64,000 nucleotides of DNA from a phage. The stretch lies in the sequence record PZ445521.1; one strand, given 5' to 3'. Under the pieces are notes generated by a model, which saw only the letters and a list, made by a program, of their open reading frames with translations, was not told the origin of the DNA and searched no databases. Positions 16,035 through 43,763 of this stretch are shown one piece after another. The stretch's first letter is position 1. Every line of letters begins with the position of its first letter. The position numbers and the translations under genes were made by a program.

Positions 16035-16064
16035 ATAGTACCACAGTCCTTGTGGTATGTAAAC
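16035..16064 (-). promoter_or_regulatory. T4-type early promoter (GTTTAC / TACTAT, 18-nt spacer)
   Basis: Minus strand GTTTACataccacaaggactgtggTACTAT; cassette near-identical to 37408..37458. Confidence 0.6.
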
Positions 16065-33762: not shown

Positions 33763-33792
33763 ATAGTACCACAGTATGCTTTGGTTGTAAAC
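33763..33792 (-). promoter_or_regulatory. T4-type early promoter upstream of motA
   Basis: Minus strand GTTTAC-N18-TACTAT; shares the gatagttgtatagtaccaca cassette core with 16026.. and 37408.. Confidence 0.55.
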
Positions 33793-33998: not shown

Positions 33999-35323
33999 TT
34001 GATTTCCTCTAAATCTTTAGTGTATTCTGTAACTACATCAGTAGTTTTCCAATATTCGTTTTCTTCTTTCTTAGCTTTAGCTTCTTCAGCAAGTTTCTTT
34101 GCTTCGTCGGAAGTCATATGAAAAATATTCATTCCGACTAGTTTATCAACATAAGAAGAATACATATCAATTTTAGAAAGTTCTTCGGTCAGTTCTTTGC
34201 GAGTTTTACCCTGTACAACGATTTCACCTGAAATTACTTTCTTAATGAAATGTGCCTTGGCAAAGGCTAAACGAAATGCTGATTCAGTTTCTTTGATTTT
34301 GTTATCAATTCGTTTTTGGACATAAGTTTTACGAACTTCAACGAAGTCTTTGATTAAATCAACTACGTTATCGTAAACTTGTAGCTTTCCTTTCTCATTA
34401 ATAACGGTAATATTTTGGGAACGACGCTCAATCAACCCGAAGTCTTTCATAATTTTCGCGTGACGTTCTTCTTCGTTATCGCTCAAAGCGTATTCTTTGC
34501 GGAATTTAACTTTAAAGCCAAAACCATGCTCACCACAAGCATCATCCCATGTAATGAAGCCTTTATCTTCAAGTGGGTCTAAGATTTTACTCACATAAGT
34601 TTCACGATCATACTTATACGGAATCTCAGTGATGTGCATTTGAGTTCGTGAAGTAAACTTATATGTTCCACGAATTTCATATTGTCCATCAATTTCAACG
34701 ACTTCACCACGAAATTCTGGGAATTCTACCTTCGGTTTAGTTACTTTCTTTCCTTGAAGAGCTTGTAGTACAGCTTTCTTGACAGAAGAAACACTATGAG
34801 GAAGAATGTAAGTTGCATAACCAGTTGCAATACCGGAAACGCCATTAAGAAGAACAGTAGGAATAATAGGCAAATAGAAAGCAGGCGGAATGTGTTCTTT
34901 ATCTTGATGTACCGGAGCATACTCAGTATCTTTATATACACTATAGAAATTTTTACTTACACGAGCAAAAATATAACGACTTGCTGCTGCTTTTTGGACA
35001 GTACGAGAACCAAAGTTTCCTTGACCATCTAACAGAGGAAAGTTATTATTCCAAGTGTTAGCCATCAAAGCACCTGCGTCTTGCGCAGAGTTTTCACCAT
35101 GATGATATCCAAGGTCCGCTACACCACCTGCAATAGAAGCGAGTTTGTGAAACTTATCTTTATTTCCTCGTGCCAAATCAAGAGCTCGAGCAATAACAAA
35201 TCGTTGAACTGGCTTAAATCCATCAATCATATTTGGAATAGCACGATTTTCAACCGTGTACATAGCATAAGCCAATGCTTCATTATCAATGATACTTTTT
35301 AAATCGCGATTATTCAGTTGCAT
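33995..35323 (-). CDS. 52: gp52 DNA topoisomerase II medium subunit
   Basis: 442-aa ORF MQLNNRDLKSIIDNEALAYAMYTVENRAIPNMIDGFKPVQRF.. (GyrA-like). Confidence 0.9.
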   Translation of the reverse strand: MQLNNRDLKSIIDNEALAYAMYTVENRAIPNMIDGFKPVQRFVIARALDLARGNKDKFHKLASIAGGVADLGYHHGENSAQDAGALMANTWNNNFPLLDGQGNFGSRTVQKAAASRYIFARVSKNFYSVYKDTEYAPVHQDKEHIPPAFYLPIIPTVLLNGVSGIATGYATYILPHSVSSVKKAVLQALQGKKVTKPKVEFPEFRGEVVEIDGQYEIRGTYKFTSRTQMHITEIPYKYDRETYVSKILDPLEDKGFITWDDACGEHGFGFKVKFRKEYALSDNEEERHAKIMKDFGLIERRSQNITVINEKGKLQVYDNVVDLIKDFVEVRKTYVQKRIDNKIKETESAFRLAFAKAHFIKKVISGEIVVQGKTRKELTEELSKIDMYSSYVDKLVGMNIFHMTSDEAKKLAEEAKAKKEENEYWKTTDVVTEYTKDLEEIK

Positions 35324-35327
35324 AAAT

Positions 35328-35468
35328 TTACCATACTAGTGAATGTAGTGCCATAATAACATCAGAAATGAAAAGCACGACTTGAATTAATCCGAACATT
35401 ACTCCATAATATAGTGCTACTAATAAAGTAGCAAGGGCTAATGAATAGCCCAAGATTTTCTTAATCAT
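35328..35468 (-). CDS. small hydrophobic protein (46 aa), not in ORF track
   Basis: ATG overlapping ac stop; MIKKILGYSLALATLLVALYYGVMFGLIQVVLFISDVIMALHSLVW; stop 4 nt before gene 52 ATG. Confidence 0.5.
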   Translation of the reverse strand: MIKKILGYSLALATLLVALYYGVMFGLIQVVLFISDVIMALHSLVW

Positions 35469-35619
35469 TAGTAGATAACAACACAAATGTTAAATATGCA
35501 CACATACCCTGAGCTAAAGCTTGCGAAAACACACTGCTGGCATCAATACAGATAGTTAAAACACATGCTACTATCCAACAAATAAATGAAATAACTCCTA
35601 ATAATTTTGCAATATTCAT
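35461..35619 (-). CDS. ac: putative Ac (acridine sensitivity) membrane protein, 52 codons
   Basis: MNIAKLLGVISFICWIVACVLTICIDASSVFSQALAQGMCAYLTFVLLSTND; located between stp and 52 as in T4; RBS GAGGAAAA. Confidence 0.55.
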   Translation of the reverse strand: MNIAKLLGVISFICWIVACVLTICIDASSVFSQALAQGMCAYLTFVLLSTND

Positions 35620-35626
35620 ATTTTCC

Positions 35627-35707
35627 TCACTGGAGTCCGAAGACGCCTTTGGTTTTAAGATTGTTACGATAGAACTGCATCACGTGTTCGTTGTGGAAAT
35701 TACTCAT
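35627..35707 (-). CDS. stp: Stp peptide (26 aa), modulator of host EcoprrI restriction / PrrC anticodon nuclease
   Basis: [26 protein letters not shown] matches T4 Stp as recalled (one difference); ATG overlaps ndd stop. Confidence 0.75.
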
Positions 35708-36165
35708 TAATATGCCTGTAAAACAAATTTAAAGTTATCAGCCAACATACGGTTCATTTCTTCAAGTGTTTGATACTCAGAATGATGATTACGAGTAAAC
35801 GCCAAAGCTAACTGACCTTTACCAAATCCCGTCGTCAGAGGTTTCATCTTAGAAGCAGGCAGATAAAACACTGTGTATGGAACATTGTTATTTGCAATAG
35901 TACGCGCAAGTTGAGACCGGCGTTGACGAATATGACTTAAAACCGCACTGAATCCTTGCTTAGAACGCTGATTACCTACATAAAATCGTGCTGACACACA
36001 TGGATTACTAAATGGACGACCATCTAATTTACTTACTAAAAAGTAAAATCCAGGTTTAGATAAAATGTCTTTATGCGGAGTTCCCAAAAACCATTCACCG
36101 CCCTTGATTGTGCCAATAACAGTAGCGCCTGCATTATTCAGATCAGTAACAGTCATGTATTTCAT
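35707..36165 (-). CDS. ndd: Ndd nucleoid disruption protein
   Basis: 152 codons from [26 protein letters not shown].. with GAGGAAA RBS; track ORF extends 16 codons upstream. Confidence 0.85.
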
Positions 36166-36225
36166 ATTAATTTCCTCTAAATTATTTTCTACTCCAAGGC
36201 CGCATGAATACACACGGCCATTAAA

Positions 36226-36441
36226 TTACTCGTCGCAGTCGACGCTCAATTCCCAGAATTCTTCTACGGTATAAGTTTCAGTATCATTTTCAATACAGAA
36301 ACGTTCATTACTGTTATTTGCTAAAGTAGCGTTAACTGTCATTTTCTCGCTAGTGCTCTTAAGAGGTGAAATACGAATTAACTGATCACCATTATCTAAA
36401 CAAAAAATTTCACCAACTTTTACATCTTTAAAGCTTTTCAT
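36226..36441 (-). CDS. hypothetical protein (ndd-denB cluster)
   Basis: ORF track. Confidence 0.5.
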   Translation of the reverse strand: MKSFKDVKVGEIFCLDNGDQLIRISPLKSTSEKMTVNATLANNSNERFCIENDTETYTVEEFWELSVDCDE

Positions 36442-36449
36442 AATTCACC

Positions 36450-36560
36450 TCAAGGAGTATAAAATCCAAATGCAGTTGTTGACCATCCCATCCAATATGG
36501 GAAATTTGCACCAATGTAAAACATAAGAATATAAAACCAACCGCTCAGCAAATTCATCAT
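36450..36560 (-). CDS. tiny membrane protein (36 aa), not in ORF track
   Basis: MMNLLSGWFYILMFYIGANFPYWMGWSTTAFGFYTP; ATGA-type overlap upstream. Confidence 0.4.
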   Translation of the reverse strand: MMNLLSGWFYILMFYIGANFPYWMGWSTTAFGFYTP

Positions 36561-36754
36561 TTTACACCGTTCCAAATTGTTTCAACCACAGATTTTAAAC
36601 CATTTTGATGAATATCCATTCCGACTACTGCCATCAAATAGATTCCAACTACAACTGAACCTAAGGCAAAAATCAGCATGAAAATGAATAAAGCCGGAAA
36701 AATATTATCGAAAAACCATTCAATAAATGTAAAAGCACTGCGTTTACGCTTCAT
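36557..36754 (-). CDS. small membrane protein (65 aa); start trimmed to ATG with GAGGAAAA RBS
   Basis: ORF track 36557..36775; internal Met at 36754 has good RBS and avoids overlap. Confidence 0.5.
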   Translation of the reverse strand: MKRKRSAFTFIEWFFDNIFPALFIFMLIFALGSVVVGIYLMAVVGMDIHQNGLKSVVETIWNGVK

Positions 36755-36761
36755 ATTTTCC

Positions 36762-36875
36762 TCACATAAATCCAAAGTAAACGTTTAATACATCAATCAT
36801 TAAAACGATTGGGAATATACTCAAAACTATTAGTATTATAACTACATTCCATATAGCTTTAACAATCTTTTTCAT
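36762..36875 (-). CDS. tiny membrane protein (37 aa)
   Basis: MKKIVKAIWNVVIILIVLSIFPIVLMIDVLNVYFGFM with GGAGG RBS; track ORF 36762..37010 extends through upstream promoter. Confidence 0.5.
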   Translation of the reverse strand: MKKIVKAIWNVVIILIVLSIFPIVLMIDVLNVYFGFM

Positions 36876-36940
36876 TTTCTGTTCCTCCGTAGTTGATAGG
36901 GTAATAGTACCACGGAAGAACAGTCTTGTAAACAACTTTT

Positions 36941-37039
36941 TTAAAAATATTCGTAATAAATGTGAATACCAATCACTACTGCCGAAACTTGTGCAACCAA
37001 CCATGCACACGCAATAAGTACAGAATTCAAAATTTTCAT
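36941..37039 (-). CDS. tiny membrane protein (32 aa), not in ORF track
   Basis: MKILNSVLIACAWLVAQVSAVVIGIHIYYEYF; ATGA overlap with next ORF. Confidence 0.4.
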   Translation of the reverse strand: MKILNSVLIACAWLVAQVSAVVIGIHIYYEYF

Positions 37040-37122
37040 AATAACCTCATCACAAAAGTAAATGTTAAACAAATTACTGGAATACTAATTAACCAAACAA
37101 AACACCACCATAATGAACTCAT
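37036..37122 (-). CDS. tiny membrane protein (28 aa), not in ORF track
   Basis: MSSLWWCFVWLISIPVICLTFTFVMRLL; ATGA overlap with upstream ORF stop. Confidence 0.4.
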   Translation of the reverse strand: MSSLWWCFVWLISIPVICLTFTFVMRLL

Positions 37123-37382
37123 AGTTCAATCTCAGCGATTTTCATTTCACTACTATTAATAGCCGCTTTAAGACTATCTGAAAGAATTACATTCCAGTGG
37201 TCATTCATATGACCATTAACTAAGCGTGTAATTTCTTCAGGAGTTGAAAAATAAGGCTGATCAGACTCCCAATGCGATAATCCTAAGCGAGTATAAATCA
37301 TGCCTTCATCATCGCTAGAATATTCAACTGACACAAACTCATCAGTTATTTTATGTTTAGCGTAATAAAATTTAAATTTCAT
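37119..37382 (-). CDS. hypothetical protein (87 aa); start trimmed to ATG after GGAG RBS
   Basis: Track ORF 37119..37484 reads through the promoter cassette; internal Met MKFKFYYAKHK has ggagaataaaATG context. Confidence 0.5.
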   Translation of the reverse strand: MKFKFYYAKHKITDEFVSVEYSSDDEGMIYTRLGLSHWESDQPYFSTPEEITRLVNGHMNDHWNVILSDSLKAAINSSEMKIAEIEL

Positions 37383-37416
37383 TTTATTCTCCAAATCCGT
37401 ATCAGTTGATAGTTGT

Positions 37417-37446
37417 ATAGTACCACGGTCCTTGTGGTATGTAAAC
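37417..37446 (-). promoter_or_regulatory. T4-type early promoter (GTTTAC-N18-TACTAT)
   Basis: Cassette 37408..37458 is about 50/51 identical to 16026..16076. Confidence 0.6.
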
Positions 37447-37465
37447 TGTTTTGTGAAATTTTTTT

Positions 37466-38023
37466 TTAAATGGAAAGATACCATCCGTTGTAGTTGCTTT
37501 TTCTTACAACCTTACGAAGGTCTTCTCTGTCACCGATGAACTTCGGAGTGTACTGGATGACACCTGGATGAATTTCTTTAGTGTTGAATATAATTATACA
37601 GTCAGCGACTTGATGATTTAGAATGGGCCCTAGATTTATTCCAGAACCGTATGGATACTCTCCGCTGCATCCTGTTGTTACAGAAATCCAACGTGAGTCA
37701 GTTTGGTGTGTCTTAACTTCTACACGAAGCCCGCAGTATCTTGGATGCGCCAATACATCCCATGCGTATGTATACGGGTCATTAACATCCTCTTGGCCTT
37801 TATTGACATATCCGCTTAGCCAATCTGCTACAAAAAATTCTGCGTACACAGCGATACGACATCTTTCAATAACTTCTGCTTTATCCTGGTTCGGGTTTTG
37901 TTTTAAAGAGTATCTTGCTGTATCAGCAATTTTGACCTTCATTTCACTAGTCAAGTCACTGTTCGATAGGGTAAATGTCGGAATCTGAAATAGTCTCTGT
38001 AAACCCGGATTCGTTTTCTGCAT
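37466..38023 (-). CDS. denB: endonuclease IV
   Basis: 185-aa ORF located beside rIIB as in T4. Confidence 0.8.
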   Translation of the reverse strand: MQKTNPGLQRLFQIPTFTLSNSDLTSEMKVKIADTARYSLKQNPNQDKAEVIERCRIAVYAEFFVADWLSGYVNKGQEDVNDPYTYAWDVLAHPRYCGLRVEVKTHQTDSRWISVTTGCSGEYPYGSGINLGPILNHQVADCIIIFNTKEIHPGVIQYTPKFIGDREDLRKVVRKSNYNGWYLSI

Positions 38024-38285
38024 TTAGACTTTCCTTTTTACCGCTGAGATAAGCGTTATATACTTTAAGAGTGCCATAATAAATTCGGTCATTTTCATCT
38101 AAAGACTCGCGGTCAAGTTCATCGAGCTCCTTTTTATCCATGACTATAACATCATTACAGTAAAGAAACCCAAGTTTTTCGTGACCAAACTCAAATTTAT
38201 TACAGTACACAATATTAGCGTGATGATTTCCGTGCAGTTTAATCTCTTTTATGTCGGAATCACCGATATTCATACAATAAATCAT
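37956..38285 (-). CDS. hypothetical protein overlapping denB 5' end
   Basis: ORF track 109 aa; 68-nt out-of-frame overlap with denB start. Confidence 0.4.
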   Translation of the reverse strand: MIYCMNIGDSDIKEIKLHGNHHANIVYCNKFEFGHEKLGFLYCNDVIVMDKKELDELDRESLDENDRIYYGTLKVYNAYLSGKKESLNAENESGFTETISDSDIYPIEQ

Positions 38286-38304
38286 AATTTTTCCTTAAAA
38301 CAAA

Positions 38305-38318
38305 AGGGCCGAAGCCCT
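38305..38318 (-). promoter_or_regulatory. C(UUCG)G intercistronic stem-loop
   Basis: agggc-cgaa-gccct (UUCG loop on minus transcript) between stop of 38324..38518 ORF and RBS of next gene. Confidence 0.55.
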
Positions 38319-38323
38319 TTATT

Positions 38324-38518
38324 TTACTTGAATTGTGCAATTCTTTTCTCTAGACATTCAGCATAAGATTTCATTGAGATGAACTGTGAAAGCAGCAGTT
38401 CTTGCTCAACTGCACTAACTGTTAGAAACTTTGCGCTTTCTAAAAATTTACTCAGTGCATTAATTTTGAGCATTAATTGATCGTATTCTTCTTTTACTCG
38501 TGCTTGATAACCTAACAT
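38324..38518 (-). CDS. hypothetical coiled-coil-like small protein
   Basis: ORF track; flanked by two identical stem-loops. Confidence 0.5.
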   Translation of the reverse strand: MLGYQARVKEEYDQLMLKINALSKFLESAKFLTVSAVEQELLLSQFISMKSYAECLEKRIAQFK

Positions 38519-38533
38519 AATTTTCCTTAGTTA

Positions 38534-38547
38534 AGGGCCGAAGCCCT
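38534..38547 (-). promoter_or_regulatory. C(UUCG)G intercistronic stem-loop after rIIB
   Basis: Second copy of agggccgaagccct immediately 3' of rIIB stop. Confidence 0.55.
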
Positions 38548-39485
38548 TATTTAAATTGTTCAGTAACGTCTTCAACTACTTCGTATTGGCAGGTACGCAT
38601 TTTAGCATCGTTGTAATCAATCGGAATTGATACTACATCACGCGGATGTACTTTAACTTTTACGACTCGGCTGGTTGAACTGCCAAAGTGACGAATATAA
38701 GATTTAGAACACACATGCAGACCACGAGAACAAGTTTGTGTATCATCGTCATTCACACGAGTACGTGGCATTTTAACTACTTTACCCGGACTGTTATCAA
38801 AGGTGTTTGAGTGACAGTCAAAGTAATTGCTGCGAACTACTTTCCAAGCATAGAAGTAACCATCTTCTGTAATTTCAATATCGTTTGCTACCAAGAAATC
38901 AAAGAGTCGAGATACCGCTTTTTGGCTTGGGTTTTCCAGCAGATTTTCCAAGAACGGAAAATAAAATTCAAAGTTTTCGCCTTTTTCCATCGAATCAAGA
39001 ATACGATCAACTAAACCAGACCGCAATTCAATATTTTGATAGAACAAGCTTCCACCTTCAATTCGAACATCGCCGGAAATATATTTTTCAACAGCGCGAC
39101 GAACATTAATTTTTTGTGCAGCTTCTTCCAGCCTATCCGCTACAAGCAGATTAAGAATTTCCTGGAAGTTTGAATGAGTATTAGGAGTTGCGTTATAAGT
39201 TACACCGTCAACAGTAATTGAAATGAATTTTTTAGATGCATTCCAAATAATGTCAGATTTAGCAACTGGAGCAATAACTGCATCGCTATTAACTTTAACT
39301 GTAATATCACCGCTAATAGTAACTTTAGAGCGTTTAGCTTCTTCAGCATTTTTCAAAACACGACGGATTGTGTCAACCGATACATCCTTCCAATAAGCTA
39401 ATTCCTGTTGGGTATAATTACCACTTGAATACAGTTTAACAATTTCAGCTTGTTCGTTTTTGGTCAGGCATTTAATATTGTACAT
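38547..39485 (-). CDS. rIIB: rIIB membrane-associated protein
   Basis: 312-aa ORF MYNIKCLTKNEQAEIVKLYSSGNYTQQELAYW.. Confidence 0.9.
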   Translation of the reverse strand: MYNIKCLTKNEQAEIVKLYSSGNYTQQELAYWKDVSVDTIRRVLKNAEEAKRSKVTISGDITVKVNSDAVIAPVAKSDIIWNASKKFISITVDGVTYNATPNTHSNFQEILNLLVADRLEEAAQKINVRRAVEKYISGDVRIEGGSLFYQNIELRSGLVDRILDSMEKGENFEFYFPFLENLLENPSQKAVSRLFDFLVANDIEITEDGYFYAWKVVRSNYFDCHSNTFDNSPGKVVKMPRTRVNDDDTQTCSRGLHVCSKSYIRHFGSSTSRVVKVKVHPRDVVSIPIDYNDAKMRTCQYEVVEDVTEQFK

Positions 39486-41888: not shown

Positions 41889-41942
41889 TTCAATATCCTC
41901 ATTTGCCCAATTAATTATACCACATCCTTGTGGTAAAGTAAA

Positions 41943-43763
41943 CTACTGGCTCATCCATTCTTTACGAAGGTCAGCATTATCTCCCATGAGCATTTCAAAA
42001 AGCTCTTTCCAGTTCTCAGGAAGTTTAACAACATCATATACTGGATTTTGAATCATCTCACGATATTCAGATTTTTCCAAAGAGCCAAGTCCCTTAATAT
42101 AACGGATGCTATGTTTAGGTAGAGCATCTTTGGCACTCTCATATTCAGCGACTGTATAAAACCATTCTTGTTTTTTACCGACCTGAGCGATGATTACAGG
42201 AGTTTTGACAAAGCGAATTCGTCCTTGCTCAAACAATTCTGGCCAATTACTAAAAAACCCGAGCAGAGAAGGATAAATGCTTCCTAGACCATCATGGTCA
42301 GCATCGGTCATAATAGCAATATTATGATAATTCAAGTTTTCAGCTTTTTCACCAAGAACTAATCCAGTGATTGCGCAAATATCAAACAGTTCTTTGTTTT
42401 TAAGCATATCAGCATATGACATACCCCAACTGTTGAGAACTTTACCACGCAATGGATAACCACCATGAAGTTCTTTATCACGAACATCAATAAGATATCC
42501 GATAGCAGAATCACCCTCAGTCAAGAAAAGAGTAGTATCAGCATCTTTACCACAAAGATTCGCTTTGATATGTTTATGAACCTTAGCTTTAGAAGCCTTT
42601 TTAGCTGCTTTAGTTTCTGCTGCTTTTTCTGCTGCCAATTTACGGGCCAAGGCAGCTTCAATAATCGGCATTAAAATTGCTTCATTATTTAGAATAGCGC
42701 GTGAAATCTTTTTAGCATCAAGTTGAATATGACTACGAATTTCACCAAAAGGAGAAGTAAGTCGTTCTTTAGTTTGAGAATCAAATCGCATGTTTTTCAT
42801 ATCACGGACAAACATAACGATAGTCAAACATTCTTTAACGCGTGCTTTAGTTACATCAATTTTGAACTTACGTTTGATTTGTGGAATAAGGTCTTCACAA
42901 ATATCATCCATAACACAGTCAATGTGATGGCCACCATTCTTAGTGTGAATGTTATTCACATAAGTTAATTGGCGAAATCCATCCGGTGAACGACCAACCG
43001 CAATAGAACAATTTTCTTGTTCTTGAACAATAGCATGTTCATCATACTGTCGTGCATATTTCTTAAAATTGCCCTGAACCTTTTTACCATTAAAGGTAAA
43101 TTGAATATCAGGATAAACAACAGCAAGTGTCTGGAGACGATCTAGTGTAATGTCAAGATAAACTTGGGACAGCTCATTAGTTTCAAATGACATAAAATCA
43201 GGAATGAAAGTAACACGGGTTCCTTTCCATTTTCCTGGAATAGTTTCCCATGATTTATTTTCCATGCCATTTGAACAACGAACTACAATATTATTTTGAC
43301 CATCGCCAGTTTCACCGACAAACATCACAGAAAAAATGTTAGTTAAACTAGAACCAACACCATTCATACCACCGGTGACACGTTCTTTATCATCACCGAA
43401 GTTACCACCCGCTTTTGGAATAGTCCAAGCAGCAACTGGACCAGGAATTTCTTCACCGGTAGGTGTTTTAACCATCGCTTGTGGAATACCGCGACCGTTA
43501 TCTTCAACTGTTACCTGATTATTTTTAATGGTAACATTAATTTTATTCGCGAATTTAAACTTAGTACGAATACCTTCATCGACTGAGTTATCGATAATTT
43601 CATCAATAAGCTTAACAAGACCAGGTACATACTGAACACTTTCCCATTTACCAAACAGAAAGCGCTCATGCATTTCATTAGCAGAAGAGCCAATATACAT
43701 GCCGCTACGCTTTTTGATATGTTCAATATCGCTCAGAATTTTAATTTCATTCTTAATCATCAC
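41943..43763 (-). CDS. 39: DNA topoisomerase II large subunit, unsplit (39 and 60 equivalents in one ORF)
   Basis: 606-aa continuous GyrB-like ORF (GHKL ATPase N-terminus, Toprim region). Confidence 0.9.
   Translation of the reverse strand: MMIKNEIKILSDIEHIKKRSGMYIGSSANEMHERFLFGKWESVQYVPGLVKLIDEIIDNSVDEGIRTKFKFANKINVTIKNNQVTVEDNGRGIPQAMVKTPTGEEIPGPVAAWTIPKAGGNFGDDKERVTGGMNGVGSSLTNIFSVMFVGETGDGQNNIVVRCSNGMENKSWETIPGKWKGTRVTFIPDFMSFETNELSQVYLDITLDRLQTLAVVYPDIQFTFNGKKVQGNFKKYARQYDEHAIVQEQENCSIAVGRSPDGFRQLTYVNNIHTKNGGHHIDCVMDDICEDLIPQIKRKFKIDVTKARVKECLTIVMFVRDMKNMRFDSQTKERLTSPFGEIRSHIQLDAKKISRAILNNEAILMPIIEAALARKLAAEKAAETKAAKKASKAKVHKHIKANLCGKDADTTLFLTEGDSAIGYLIDVRDKELHGGYPLRGKVLNSWGMSYADMLKNKELFDICAITGLVLGEKAENLNYHNIAIMTDADHDGLGSIYPSLLGFFSNWPELFEQGRIRFVKTPVIIAQVGKKQEWFYTVAEYESAKDALPKHSIRYIKGLGSLEKSEYREMIQNPVYDVVKLPENWKELFEMLMGDNADLRKEWMSQ

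Follow-up and report, generated by a model that had tools for sequence, protein, structure and literature searches.

Single-span membrane peptides of 30-50 amino acids (aa) that bind larger membrane proteins, such as AcrZ, MgrB, MgtS, CydX and KdpF, are known from Escherichia coli, and phage T4 produces Imm (83 aa) and Sp (97 aa), small early proteins that are located in the inner membrane or face the periplasm and that a single infection does not require. T4 also carries a series of very small open reading frames (ORFs), named ndd.1, ndd.2, ndd.2a, ndd.3, ndd.4, ndd.5 and ndd.6 in the reference genome (NC_000866, T4p269-T4p275), whose products were described as unknown by Kutter et al. (PMC6071114). 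These ORFs are removed, together with 52.1, ac, stp, ndd and denB, by the deletion saΔ9, which is viable with a yield of about 50% and abolishes the post-infection stimulation of phospholipid, especially phosphatidylglycerol (PG), synthesis, an effect behind which two or more genes were expected (PMC6071114). Here we analyzed a cluster of very small ORFs at positions 36226-37382 of a 64,000-nucleotide (nt) stretch of phage DNA (PZ445521.1), which is referred to as the window in its full length. As judged by sequence comparison, this cluster is the already annotated T4-type ndd.1-ndd.6 early block, in the copy carried by Shigella phage JK38, plus a gene, orfA, that T4 has lost. The sequence itself reveals no new kind of system, and what our analysis adds are refinements rather than discoveries.

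The identity of the locus was established by a megablast comparison in which positions 36100-37600 gave a 100% full-length match to JK38 (MK962755, Tequatrovirus) and aligned with over 490 further T4-like phages at identities of 90-98%. Seven tiled ORFs fill the interval between denB (37466-38023) and ndd (35707-36165) with a coding share of 93% (1077 of 1157 nt), and every gene in this part of the window lies on the minus strand. Position, order and strand agree with the annotated loci of T4, T4T, RB51 and T2, the T4 ndd.1-ndd.6 region being syntenic with the window interval at about 97% nucleotide identity and sharing its overlaps and its internal early promoter. The products of ndd.6 and ndd.1 are identical to their T4 counterparts and those of ndd.5, ndd.4 and ndd.2 differ by 1-2 residues each, giving 94-100% aa identity over these five genes. 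In contrast to T4, JK38 and most Tequatroviruses carry the extra 87-aa orfA upstream of ndd.6, and the window lacks a 1-nt deletion that NC_000866 has in the 65-aa gene. An earlier note on this DNA had described at least seven tightly packed ORFs of 28-72 aa between ndd and denB, four of them under a 60-aa cutoff, most of them predicted single-transmembrane (TM) peptides and several joined by ATGA. Our analysis bears out this description in nearly all respects, with four ORFs counted below the cutoff, a TM-like stretch in five of the seven by hydropathy, and three ATGA overlaps (orfA/ndd.6, ndd.6/ndd.5 and ndd.2a/3/ndd.2). Only the upper size limit has to be corrected, since the true range is 28-87 aa owing to orfA, and the supposed 72-aa ORF is a TTG-extended reading of the 65-aa gene. 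The note had not identified the cluster as the block annotated in T4.

Features of the denB-ndd interval of the window and their properties (SD, Shine-Dalgarno sequence)
Feature	Position	Strand	Properties
orfA	37119-37382	-	87 aa, soluble; phrog_2390; absent from T4, replaced in T2, hypervariable
ndd.6	37036-37122	-	28 aa, hydrophobic, predicted single-TM; ATGA-coupled to orfA
ndd.5	36941-37039	-	32 aa, hydrophobic, predicted single-TM, predicted N-in; ATGA-coupled to ndd.6; own GAGG SD
ndd.4	36762-36875	-	37 aa, predicted single-TM; KK..K N-terminus, predicted N-in/C-out; GGAGGA SD
ndd.2a/3	36557-36754	-	65 aa, Pfam DUF7248; basic N-terminus MKRKRS, one long hydrophobic span
ndd.2	36450-36560	-	35/36 aa, uncharged, aromatic-rich (12 F/W/Y); overlaps ndd.2a/3 stop (ATGA)
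ndd.1	36226-36441	-	71 aa, acidic, soluble; strong GAGGTGA SD
Predicted early promoter of orfA-ndd.6-ndd.5	37417-37446	-	GTTTACA-N14-TGG-TACTAT, pattern match
Predicted second early promoter, of ndd.4-ndd.2a/3-ndd.2-ndd.1	36904-36933	-	exact pattern match; in the 65-nt ndd.5-ndd.4 spacer
9-bp RNA hairpin	36198-36219	-	GGCCGUGUG-UAUU-CAUGCGGCC; after ndd.1 and before ndd; without U-tract

Hydrophobic short ORFs are common in this DNA, and 50 ATG ORFs of this kind with 25-75 aa were counted over all six frames of the window, the majority lying out of frame within real genes. An SD-like motif was present in only eight of the 50, several of these eight being real genes. Hydrophobicity alone thus does not exceed chance in the AT-rich window, but conservation does. 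For the analysis of selection, the denB-ndd interval was aligned from 16 Tequatroviruses, and the ratio of nonsynonymous to synonymous differences per site (pN/pS) was calculated by the summed Nei-Gojobori method; a Ndd-anchored search of viral contigs gave 5 loci only, and diversity was sampled from annotated phage records instead. The in-frame pN/pS was 0.12 for ndd.6, 0.12 for ndd.5, 0.09 for ndd.2a/3, 0.15 for ndd.2 and 0.11 for ndd.1, compared with values from about 0.9 to more than 4 in the two alternative frames. The frames of ndd.6, ndd.5, ndd.4, ndd.2 and ndd.1 were intact nearly throughout the 16 aligned genomes, the exceptions being one metagenomic contig, in which 2 nt are inserted at the end of ndd.6, and phage fFiEco06 (positions 2239-2498 of aligned locus L015), in which an insertion of 44 nt that looks like a duplication divides ndd.1, so that two ORFs are annotated; ndd.2a/3 was intact in 14 of the 16 relatives. 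Since ndd.4 has only six variable sites within the Tequatrovirus set, its pN/pS is uninformative at this level; across genera its product is 61% identical in aa sequence to that of Dhakavirus JS10 and 45% identical to that of Klebsiella phage Marfa, the motif VL.I.PIV..ID being conserved and pN/pS amounting to 0.34-0.37. Likewise, the ndd.2 product is 49% identical to that of Marfa and shares the motif GW..F.IG.N.PYW.GWS. Overall, the cross-genus comparisons gave 45-61% aa identity and 51-69% nucleotide identity, with synonymous differences of 0.5-1.0 per site. The reading frames, whose conservation across T4-like genomes the earlier note had proposed to check, are kept in the aligned relatives and in hundreds of phage records, and an SD sequence or an ATGA coupling, as read from the sequence, is present at each ORF. 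These patterns identify the micro-ORFs as genuine genes under purifying selection as proteins.

Opposite-strand coding was considered and rejected, as a 65-aa ORF on the plus strand (36962-37159) is interrupted in 14 of the 16 genomes and three other opposite-strand ORFs are interrupted in 1, 8 and 10 of them; the two shortest opposite-strand ORFs are open only where the underlying DNA is conserved. A separate observation concerns ndd.4 and its leader (36762-36895), where the number of synonymous differences per site (pS) among the 16 Tequatroviruses was 0.006, compared with 0.08-0.18 in neighboring ORFs, and where five of the six variable sites of the gene are conservative aa changes (V/I/A, plus one A/T). 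This low synonymous variation may reflect a recent sweep or recombination, or an overlapping constraint at the nucleotide level.

All seven ORFs of the window matched families in a search with the PHROG hidden Markov models, each over its full length, with phrog_8851 for ndd.6 (E=1.6e-17), phrog_5011 for ndd.5 (E=4e-25), phrog_3098 for ndd.4 (E=3e-21), phrog_2401 for ndd.2a/3, phrog_4135 for ndd.2 (E=2e-24) and phrog_2183 for ndd.1 (E=4e-38), homologues of the last carrying a precomputed assignment to Pfam PF26909. The ndd.6 product retains the cross-genus motif MSS..W...W..(S/C)IP.IC..F together with the ATGA coupling, and that of ndd.2a/3, which has a conserved C-terminal tail GLK.VVE..W.G, matched Pfam DUF7248 (PF23906) with 71.9 bits at a gathering cutoff of 27, residues 6-63 aligning with profile positions 4-57 of 58. 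The first codon of ndd.2 is ATA in 5 of the 16 relatives and its second ATG, at 36557, is invariant; this second ATG is probably the conserved start. The best 19-residue Kyte-Doolittle mean was 2.3-3.1 for the four more hydrophobic ORFs and 1.2 for ndd.2. Basic N-termini on the products of ndd.4, ndd.5 and ndd.2a/3 lead to a predicted N-in/C-out orientation, and the sole charge of the ndd.6 product is the C-terminal Arg26. An AlphaFold2 model of the ndd.1 product was unusable (mean predicted local distance difference test score, pLDDT, 45).

Searches for more distant relatives were largely negative. No Rfam match was obtained in 35300-38600 at E<=1, none of the PADLOC-DB families matched any of the seven proteins at E<=1, and a test of paralogy among the seven products, Ac and gp52.1 found no significant pair (best z-score 2.8). 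A HMMER search of the 65-aa protein against 1.84 billion representatives returned eight matches only, among them three small relatives (62-76 aa) and one 25-aa fragment, and no informative domain fusion. The four long proteins (419-6939 aa) in this set were discarded, because only a hydrophobic stretch or a 15-residue segment aligned, probably for compositional reasons. Homologue searches with orfA and ndd.1 gave near-identical phage proteins only.

Several class assignments were rejected on similar grounds. In bacterial lipoproteins the lipobox follows a signal peptide and places the Cys some 15-35 residues behind the N-terminus. Lipoprotein identity of Ndd.2, Ndd.5 or Ndd.6 was dismissed, since a lipobox-like site occurs in ndd.5 alone, where the Cys is too N-terminal, and ndd.6 and ndd.2 have none. 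The site in ndd.5 is an invariant L-I-A-C at residues 8-11, with the Cys at residue 11 of 32, and I-A-C also occurs in a Mosigvirus 36-aa ORF at this place. The old T4 labels 'outer membrane' and 'periplasmic' are not supported by the sequences, and peptides of 28-36 aa cannot form outer-membrane barrels. Nor do the ORFs resemble the type I toxins Hok, Ldr, TisB, Ibs and DinQ, for which there was no NCBIfam, Pfam or Rfam match, and the longest ORF on the opposite strand is broken in 14 of the 16 genomes.

Comparison of T4 sequences shows that the ORFs called ndd.3 and ndd.2a in the T4 reference are one gene split by a 1-nt frameshift. NC_000866 is one G short at the position corresponding to 36749 of the window (about 166620 of NC_000866), in codon 2 of the 65-aa gene, which yields an out-of-frame 26-aa 'Ndd.3', a singleton in PHROG, and a 40-aa 'Ndd.2a' beginning at the internal Met26. 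The intact 65-aa gene is present with 100% identity in the T4 sequences OZ209057, HM137666, KJ477685 and LR597660, and the annotation of T4T (HM137666) contains a 198-nt ndd.3 that corresponds to the whole gene. In T2 (LC348380) a stop is found at codon 33.

The most variable element of the locus is orfA, which is present in most Tequatroviruses as well as in Mosigvirus, Dhakavirus and Carettavirus. It shows a nucleotide diversity of 0.25-0.37, compared with 0.02-0.07 for its neighbors, its pN/pS is 0.47, and its three allele classes are shared across genera. The JK38 allele shows 69% aa identity to a Mosigvirus allele and 55% to another Tequatrovirus allele, which indicates cassette exchange. 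In T4 an in-frame deletion between 8-nt AAATGAAA repeats has removed orfA and left an unannotated 8-codon ORF, MKIAEIEL*, with an SD and an ATGA overlap to ndd.6, and in T2 an unrelated 68-aa ORF is followed by the same 8-codon remnant. From this pattern orfA can be described as a hypervariable cassette that T4 has lost by in-frame deletion. An AlphaFold model of its product (pLDDT 86.6) predicts an alpha/beta fold, for which a structure search found no informative structural neighbor. Retention of the last eight orfA codons and of the ATGA junction with ndd.6 in T4 and T2, at a place where orfA itself is hypervariable, deleted or replaced, suggests that ndd.6 depends on translational coupling.

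The arrangement of the promoters is that of T4 early promoters, which have an UP/-35/TGn/-10 architecture (PMC2988021). The pattern GTTTACW-N14-TGN-TAYWAT was matched 17 times in the window, on the minus strand in every case, with 0.13 expected, and both promoters of the cluster are of the form TTTACA-N17-TACTAT, fitting the consensus TTTACW-N17-TAYWAT of early promoters (Pe) in PST and T4 (PMC4122927). The two promoter cassettes share 76% identity along a stretch of about 80 nt that takes in the leader CTATCAACT, and in phage fPS-90 the site homologous to the orfA promoter is annotated as 'predicted early promoter'. Two T4-type early promoters point to two early operons, orfA-ndd.6-ndd.5 and ndd.4-ndd.2a/3-ndd.2-ndd.1. 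Beside the SDs listed in the table, GGAG precedes orfA and GAGGA precedes ndd.2a/3, and the weak SDs of ndd.6 and ndd.2 are both placed on ATGA overlaps. GGAG occurs within the SD of the first gene of each operon; it is described as the cleavage motif of RegB, through which early T4 mRNAs are inactivated (PMC1702504), and both first-gene SDs might therefore be cleaved by RegB. Downstream of ndd.1, a 70-nt segment containing the hairpin (36166-36235) folds with a minimum free energy of -16.8 kcal/mol (z = -2.7 against shuffles). The hairpin looks conserved, is followed by GGAG and was not called as an intrinsic terminator, so that it may be an mRNA 3'-end, processing or stability element rather than a terminator.

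Further copies of the promoter lie on the minus strand of the window, for example at 16035-16064, 33763-33792 and 41914-41943, the first being nearly identical to the orfA promoter, and the off-target tables of the CRISPRi-ART screen list the leaders of T4 ndd.6 and ndd.4 as near-duplicates of the imm.1 and nrdC.8 leaders. Together these repeats indicate that promoter-leader cassettes recur around the genome. The locus resembles the PeSL (promoter-stem-loop) cassettes described earlier from hyperplastic regions of T4-like phages (Arbiol 2010; Comeau 2014, PMC4122927) in its promoter consensus and in the small variable ORFs flanking the promoters, and the presence or absence of orfA and the swapping of its alleles fit cassette exchange. 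The exchange of ndd.4/.5 of T4 for two different ORFs in PST has been given as an example of such promoter-cassette shuffling (PMC4122927). However, no terminator-like hairpin was called next to either promoter, although no dedicated search for the degenerate AGNA-loop-TCNT motif was made, the one clear hairpin is that behind ndd.1, and the loss of orfA in T4 resembles a deletion between the AAATGAAA repeats, not a promoter-to-promoter recombination.

The distribution of the individual genes was determined by tblastn searches of 50,697 phage records, hundreds of which contain full-length copies. Matches to ndd.6 were found in 751 records, including Mosigvirus and Dhakavirus at 46-54% identity, to ndd.5 in 494 records (all full length, in Tequatrovirus only), to ndd.4 in 622 (621 full length), to ndd.2a/3 in 657, including Klebsiella and Aeromonas phages, and to ndd.2 in 519. 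Outside Tequatrovirus, Mosigvirus and Carettavirus carry ndd.6 together with orfA, Dhakavirus carries this pair and ndd.4, and Marfavirus carries ndd.4 and ndd.2; ndd.2 is also present in other Klebsiella phages, and DUF7248 in Klebsiella phages and an Aeromonas phage. Protein motifs are kept across Mosigvirus, Dhakavirus, Carettavirus, Marfavirus and an Aeromonas phage (45-61% aa identity). The modules of the block thus assort independently, which argues for separate functions and not for subunits of one complex.

Gene identity, conservation of the frames, purifying selection, the anatomy of promoters and SDs, and independent assortment are all direct observations on these genomes, and the interpretation that we consider probable, with room for serious doubt, is that the block encodes early, independently acting, single-span inner-membrane micro-proteins, together with two small proteins that are soluble, which retune the host envelope and are conditionally useful but dispensable in the laboratory. 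Right after DNA injection, the host sigma-70 RNA polymerase would fire the two early promoters and produce two short polycistronic mRNAs, on which ribosomes would load at the good SDs (orfA, ndd.5, ndd.4, ndd.2a/3 and ndd.1) and would reach the weak-SD genes ndd.6 and ndd.2 via termination-reinitiation at the ATGA overlaps. The five hydrophobic products (28-65 aa), whose translation we infer, would then insert in the inner membrane as single-span peptides, with those of ndd.4, ndd.5 and ndd.2a/3 oriented N-in/C-out as predicted from their basic N-termini. Each peptide would act on its own and in stoichiometric amounts, its target being an inner-membrane protein of the host or lipid metabolism, in the manner of Kutter's 'monkey wrenches', and these accessory functions would be useful under particular conditions and dispensable on laboratory E. 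coli. The small membrane regulators of E. coli offer a functional model by analogy, but no homology to them was found in NCBIfam or Pfam. A further likeness is provided by T4 Ac (acridine sensitivity/resistance, 51-52 aa) and gp52.1 (46 aa), small membrane proteins encoded just downstream, which share the size class, the single hydrophobic span, the direction and the saΔ9-deletable region, Ac being a precedent for a micro-protein of this block that alters envelope permeability. However, neither has detectable sequence similarity to any ndd.x peptide, and ndd.2-ndd.6 have not been linked to any phenotype in permeability or dye response.

The T4 effect on phospholipid synthesis was reportedly first described in 1968-69. 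The mapping of PG stimulation goes no further than the 3.4 kb removed in saΔ9 (PMC6071114), and since no other phenotype maps there, this stimulation is the most concrete activity to be proposed for the block. A more specific form of the proposal, which we offer as a long shot, would make one micro-protein (ndd.2, ndd.2a/3, ndd.4, ndd.5 or ndd.6) the early factor that maintains phospholipid synthesis in the host and specifically stimulates that of PG, by direct binding to a lipid-synthesis enzyme of the inner membrane or to its regulator, with the soluble orfA and the conserved, translationally coupled, anchor-like ndd.6 forming, in parallel, a two-part arms-race module against a host membrane-associated factor.

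Available T4 data agree in part with this picture. Peptides that are tiny and hydrophobic regularly escape detection in shotgun proteomics. RNA of T4 ndd.1-ndd.6 was classed as early, and the Ndd.1 protein was detected as early in the T4 proteome (PMC9697503 supplement). In the CRISPRi-ART screen of T4 on laboratory E. coli, ndd.1, ndd.2, ndd.2a, ndd.3, ndd.4, ndd.5 and ndd.6 were all scored 'Not Fit', meaning that knockdown gave no phenotype (PMC11879866 supplement). A literature search found no functional paper on any ndd.x gene, and a knockout study that looked relevant (10.1101/2024.04.14.589459) was set aside, as it concerns a different phage.

A number of points weigh against the proposed envelope role. 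Ndd.2-Ndd.6 are entered as NA in the T4 proteome table (PMC9697503 supplement), and our literature search found no T4 ribosome-profiling paper. Membrane insertion and topology are predicted from hydropathy and charge alone, and the product of ndd.2, being moderately hydrophobic, may sit at the membrane interface instead of spanning the bilayer. For ndd.4, with a pS of 0.006 within Tequatrovirus, the apparent coding constraint is backed by the cross-genus comparison alone. Searches of Pfam, NCBIfam and PADLOC related none of the ORFs to a protein of known function, so that the assignment to envelope modulation, including possible host membrane targets, is derived from class resemblance and genetic neighborhood. 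The lipid phenotype, finally, is not mapped to these ORFs, because saΔ9 also takes 52.1, ac, stp, ndd and denB, and a link to lipid synthesis stays conjectural for each of them.

Other explanations have to be considered against the same evidence. Of the three functions suggested in the earlier note, lysis timing has the least support, and superinfection exclusion and modulation of host membrane proteins would both agree with early expression and with the missing knockdown phenotype on a laboratory host. The peptides, or the orfA-ndd.6 pair, could neutralize, or be sensed by, a membrane-acting abortive-infection system of the host or a prophage. Such an interplay with host defense would match the neighborhood, since the leftward early block also contains rIIB, denB, stp and ac, the nearby rIIA/rIIB (Rex) and stp (PrrC) operate on this principle, and rII counters the membrane-depolarizing RexAB system (PMC11879866). 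It would also account for the missing phenotype on a defense-poor laboratory host, and the hypervariability of orfA (0.25-0.37) with its cross-genus alleles is typical of arms-race cassettes. However, the micro-peptides are highly conserved and under purifying rather than diversifying selection, even orfA has a pN/pS well under 1 (0.47), there was no match in PADLOC or Pfam, and no experimental link has been reported, so that we regard this explanation as unlikely. Lower still is our estimate for superinfection exclusion, in which early membrane peptides would, like T4 Imm and Sp, stop secondary T-even phages at DNA injection or at a periplasmic step. The early expression in T4, the predicted inner-membrane location, a size class near that of Imm and Sp, and the lack of a phenotype in a single-infection knockdown, as expected for a function needed only in superinfection, are compatible with this role, although Imm and Sp are larger, are encoded elsewhere in the genome and share no family match with the ORFs described here. 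Moreover, T4 exclusion is presumably accounted for genetically by imm and sp at their other location, which speaks against a further contribution from this block. Among Pfam matches at E<=1 only DUF7248 passes the gathering cutoff, the remainder being at chance level and none belonging to exclusion families, the PHROG families matched have no assigned function, and no exclusion effect has been reported for deletions of the interval such as saΔ9 (PMC6071114).

The two explanations least compatible with the data are lysis timing and lack of function. A role as holin, antiholin or accessory factor of lysis inhibition is disfavored and would be very surprising: holins and antiholins are typically small proteins with a single TM span, and the 'rapid lysis' locus rIIB lies two to three genes upstream, but the predicted promoters are strong early ones and the T4 RNA is of the early class, no endolysin, holin or spanin gene adjoins the cluster (its neighbors being denB, ndd, stp and ac), the lysis genes being at a great distance, and neither Pfam nor PHROG gave a holin or antiholin family match. 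In addition, knockdown was without plaque or fitness phenotype (PMC11879866 supplement), and the property that led to the isolation of saΔ9 was acridine sensitivity and not altered lysis (PMC6071114). It is just as hard to believe that the ORFs are non-functional, either as chance hydrophobic frames in an AT-rich spacer or as leader ORFs whose peptide sequence is irrelevant. This notion could draw on the 50 short hydrophobic ORFs that arise by chance in six frames of 64 kb, on the failure of mass spectrometry to detect Ndd.2-Ndd.6 (PMC9697503 supplement), on the absence of a knockdown phenotype (PMC11879866 supplement), and on the 65-aa gene being frameshifted in the T4 reference and stopped in T2. 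In contrast, pN/pS is 0.09-0.15 in the true frame only, the frames are intact in about 500-750 genomes, aa motifs are held at 45-61% identity despite synonymous differences of 0.5-1.0 per site, each ORF has an SD or a coupling overlap, and other T4 isolates have the 65-aa gene intact.

Besides the cluster itself, the comparison drew attention to the annotation of this region. The deposited JK38 record leaves ndd.6, stp (35627-35707, minus strand, 26 aa) and 52.1 (35328-35468, minus strand, 46 aa) unannotated, all of which are conserved, and ndd.6 is also missing from the annotation of several other Tequatrovirus records. In the same record denB is shortened to 158 aa, although its complete frame encodes 185 aa with 98% identity to T4 DenB, the 27 N-terminal residues included. 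Between denB.1 and denB lies a 109-aa ORF (37956-38285, minus strand) that shares 68 nt with the beginning of the 185-aa denB frame; T4 is without this ORF and phage Sf24 has two copies.

In T4 these ORFs have been listed as 'unknown' over a period of some 30 years, and phage micro-proteins that act on the host membrane are poorly understood. To the known block our analysis adds evidence of selection, the recognition of ndd.3 and ndd.2a as one gene, the orfA cassette and its remnant in T4, the coupling architecture and the independent assortment of the genes. The seven named ORFs of T4 thereby become six real genes plus one lost cassette. Under the proposed role of the block as a source of envelope-retuning micro-proteins, the five peptides of 28-65 aa would make a short list of candidates for mapping the stimulation of PG synthesis and for conditional-phenotype screens involving defense systems and envelope stress.

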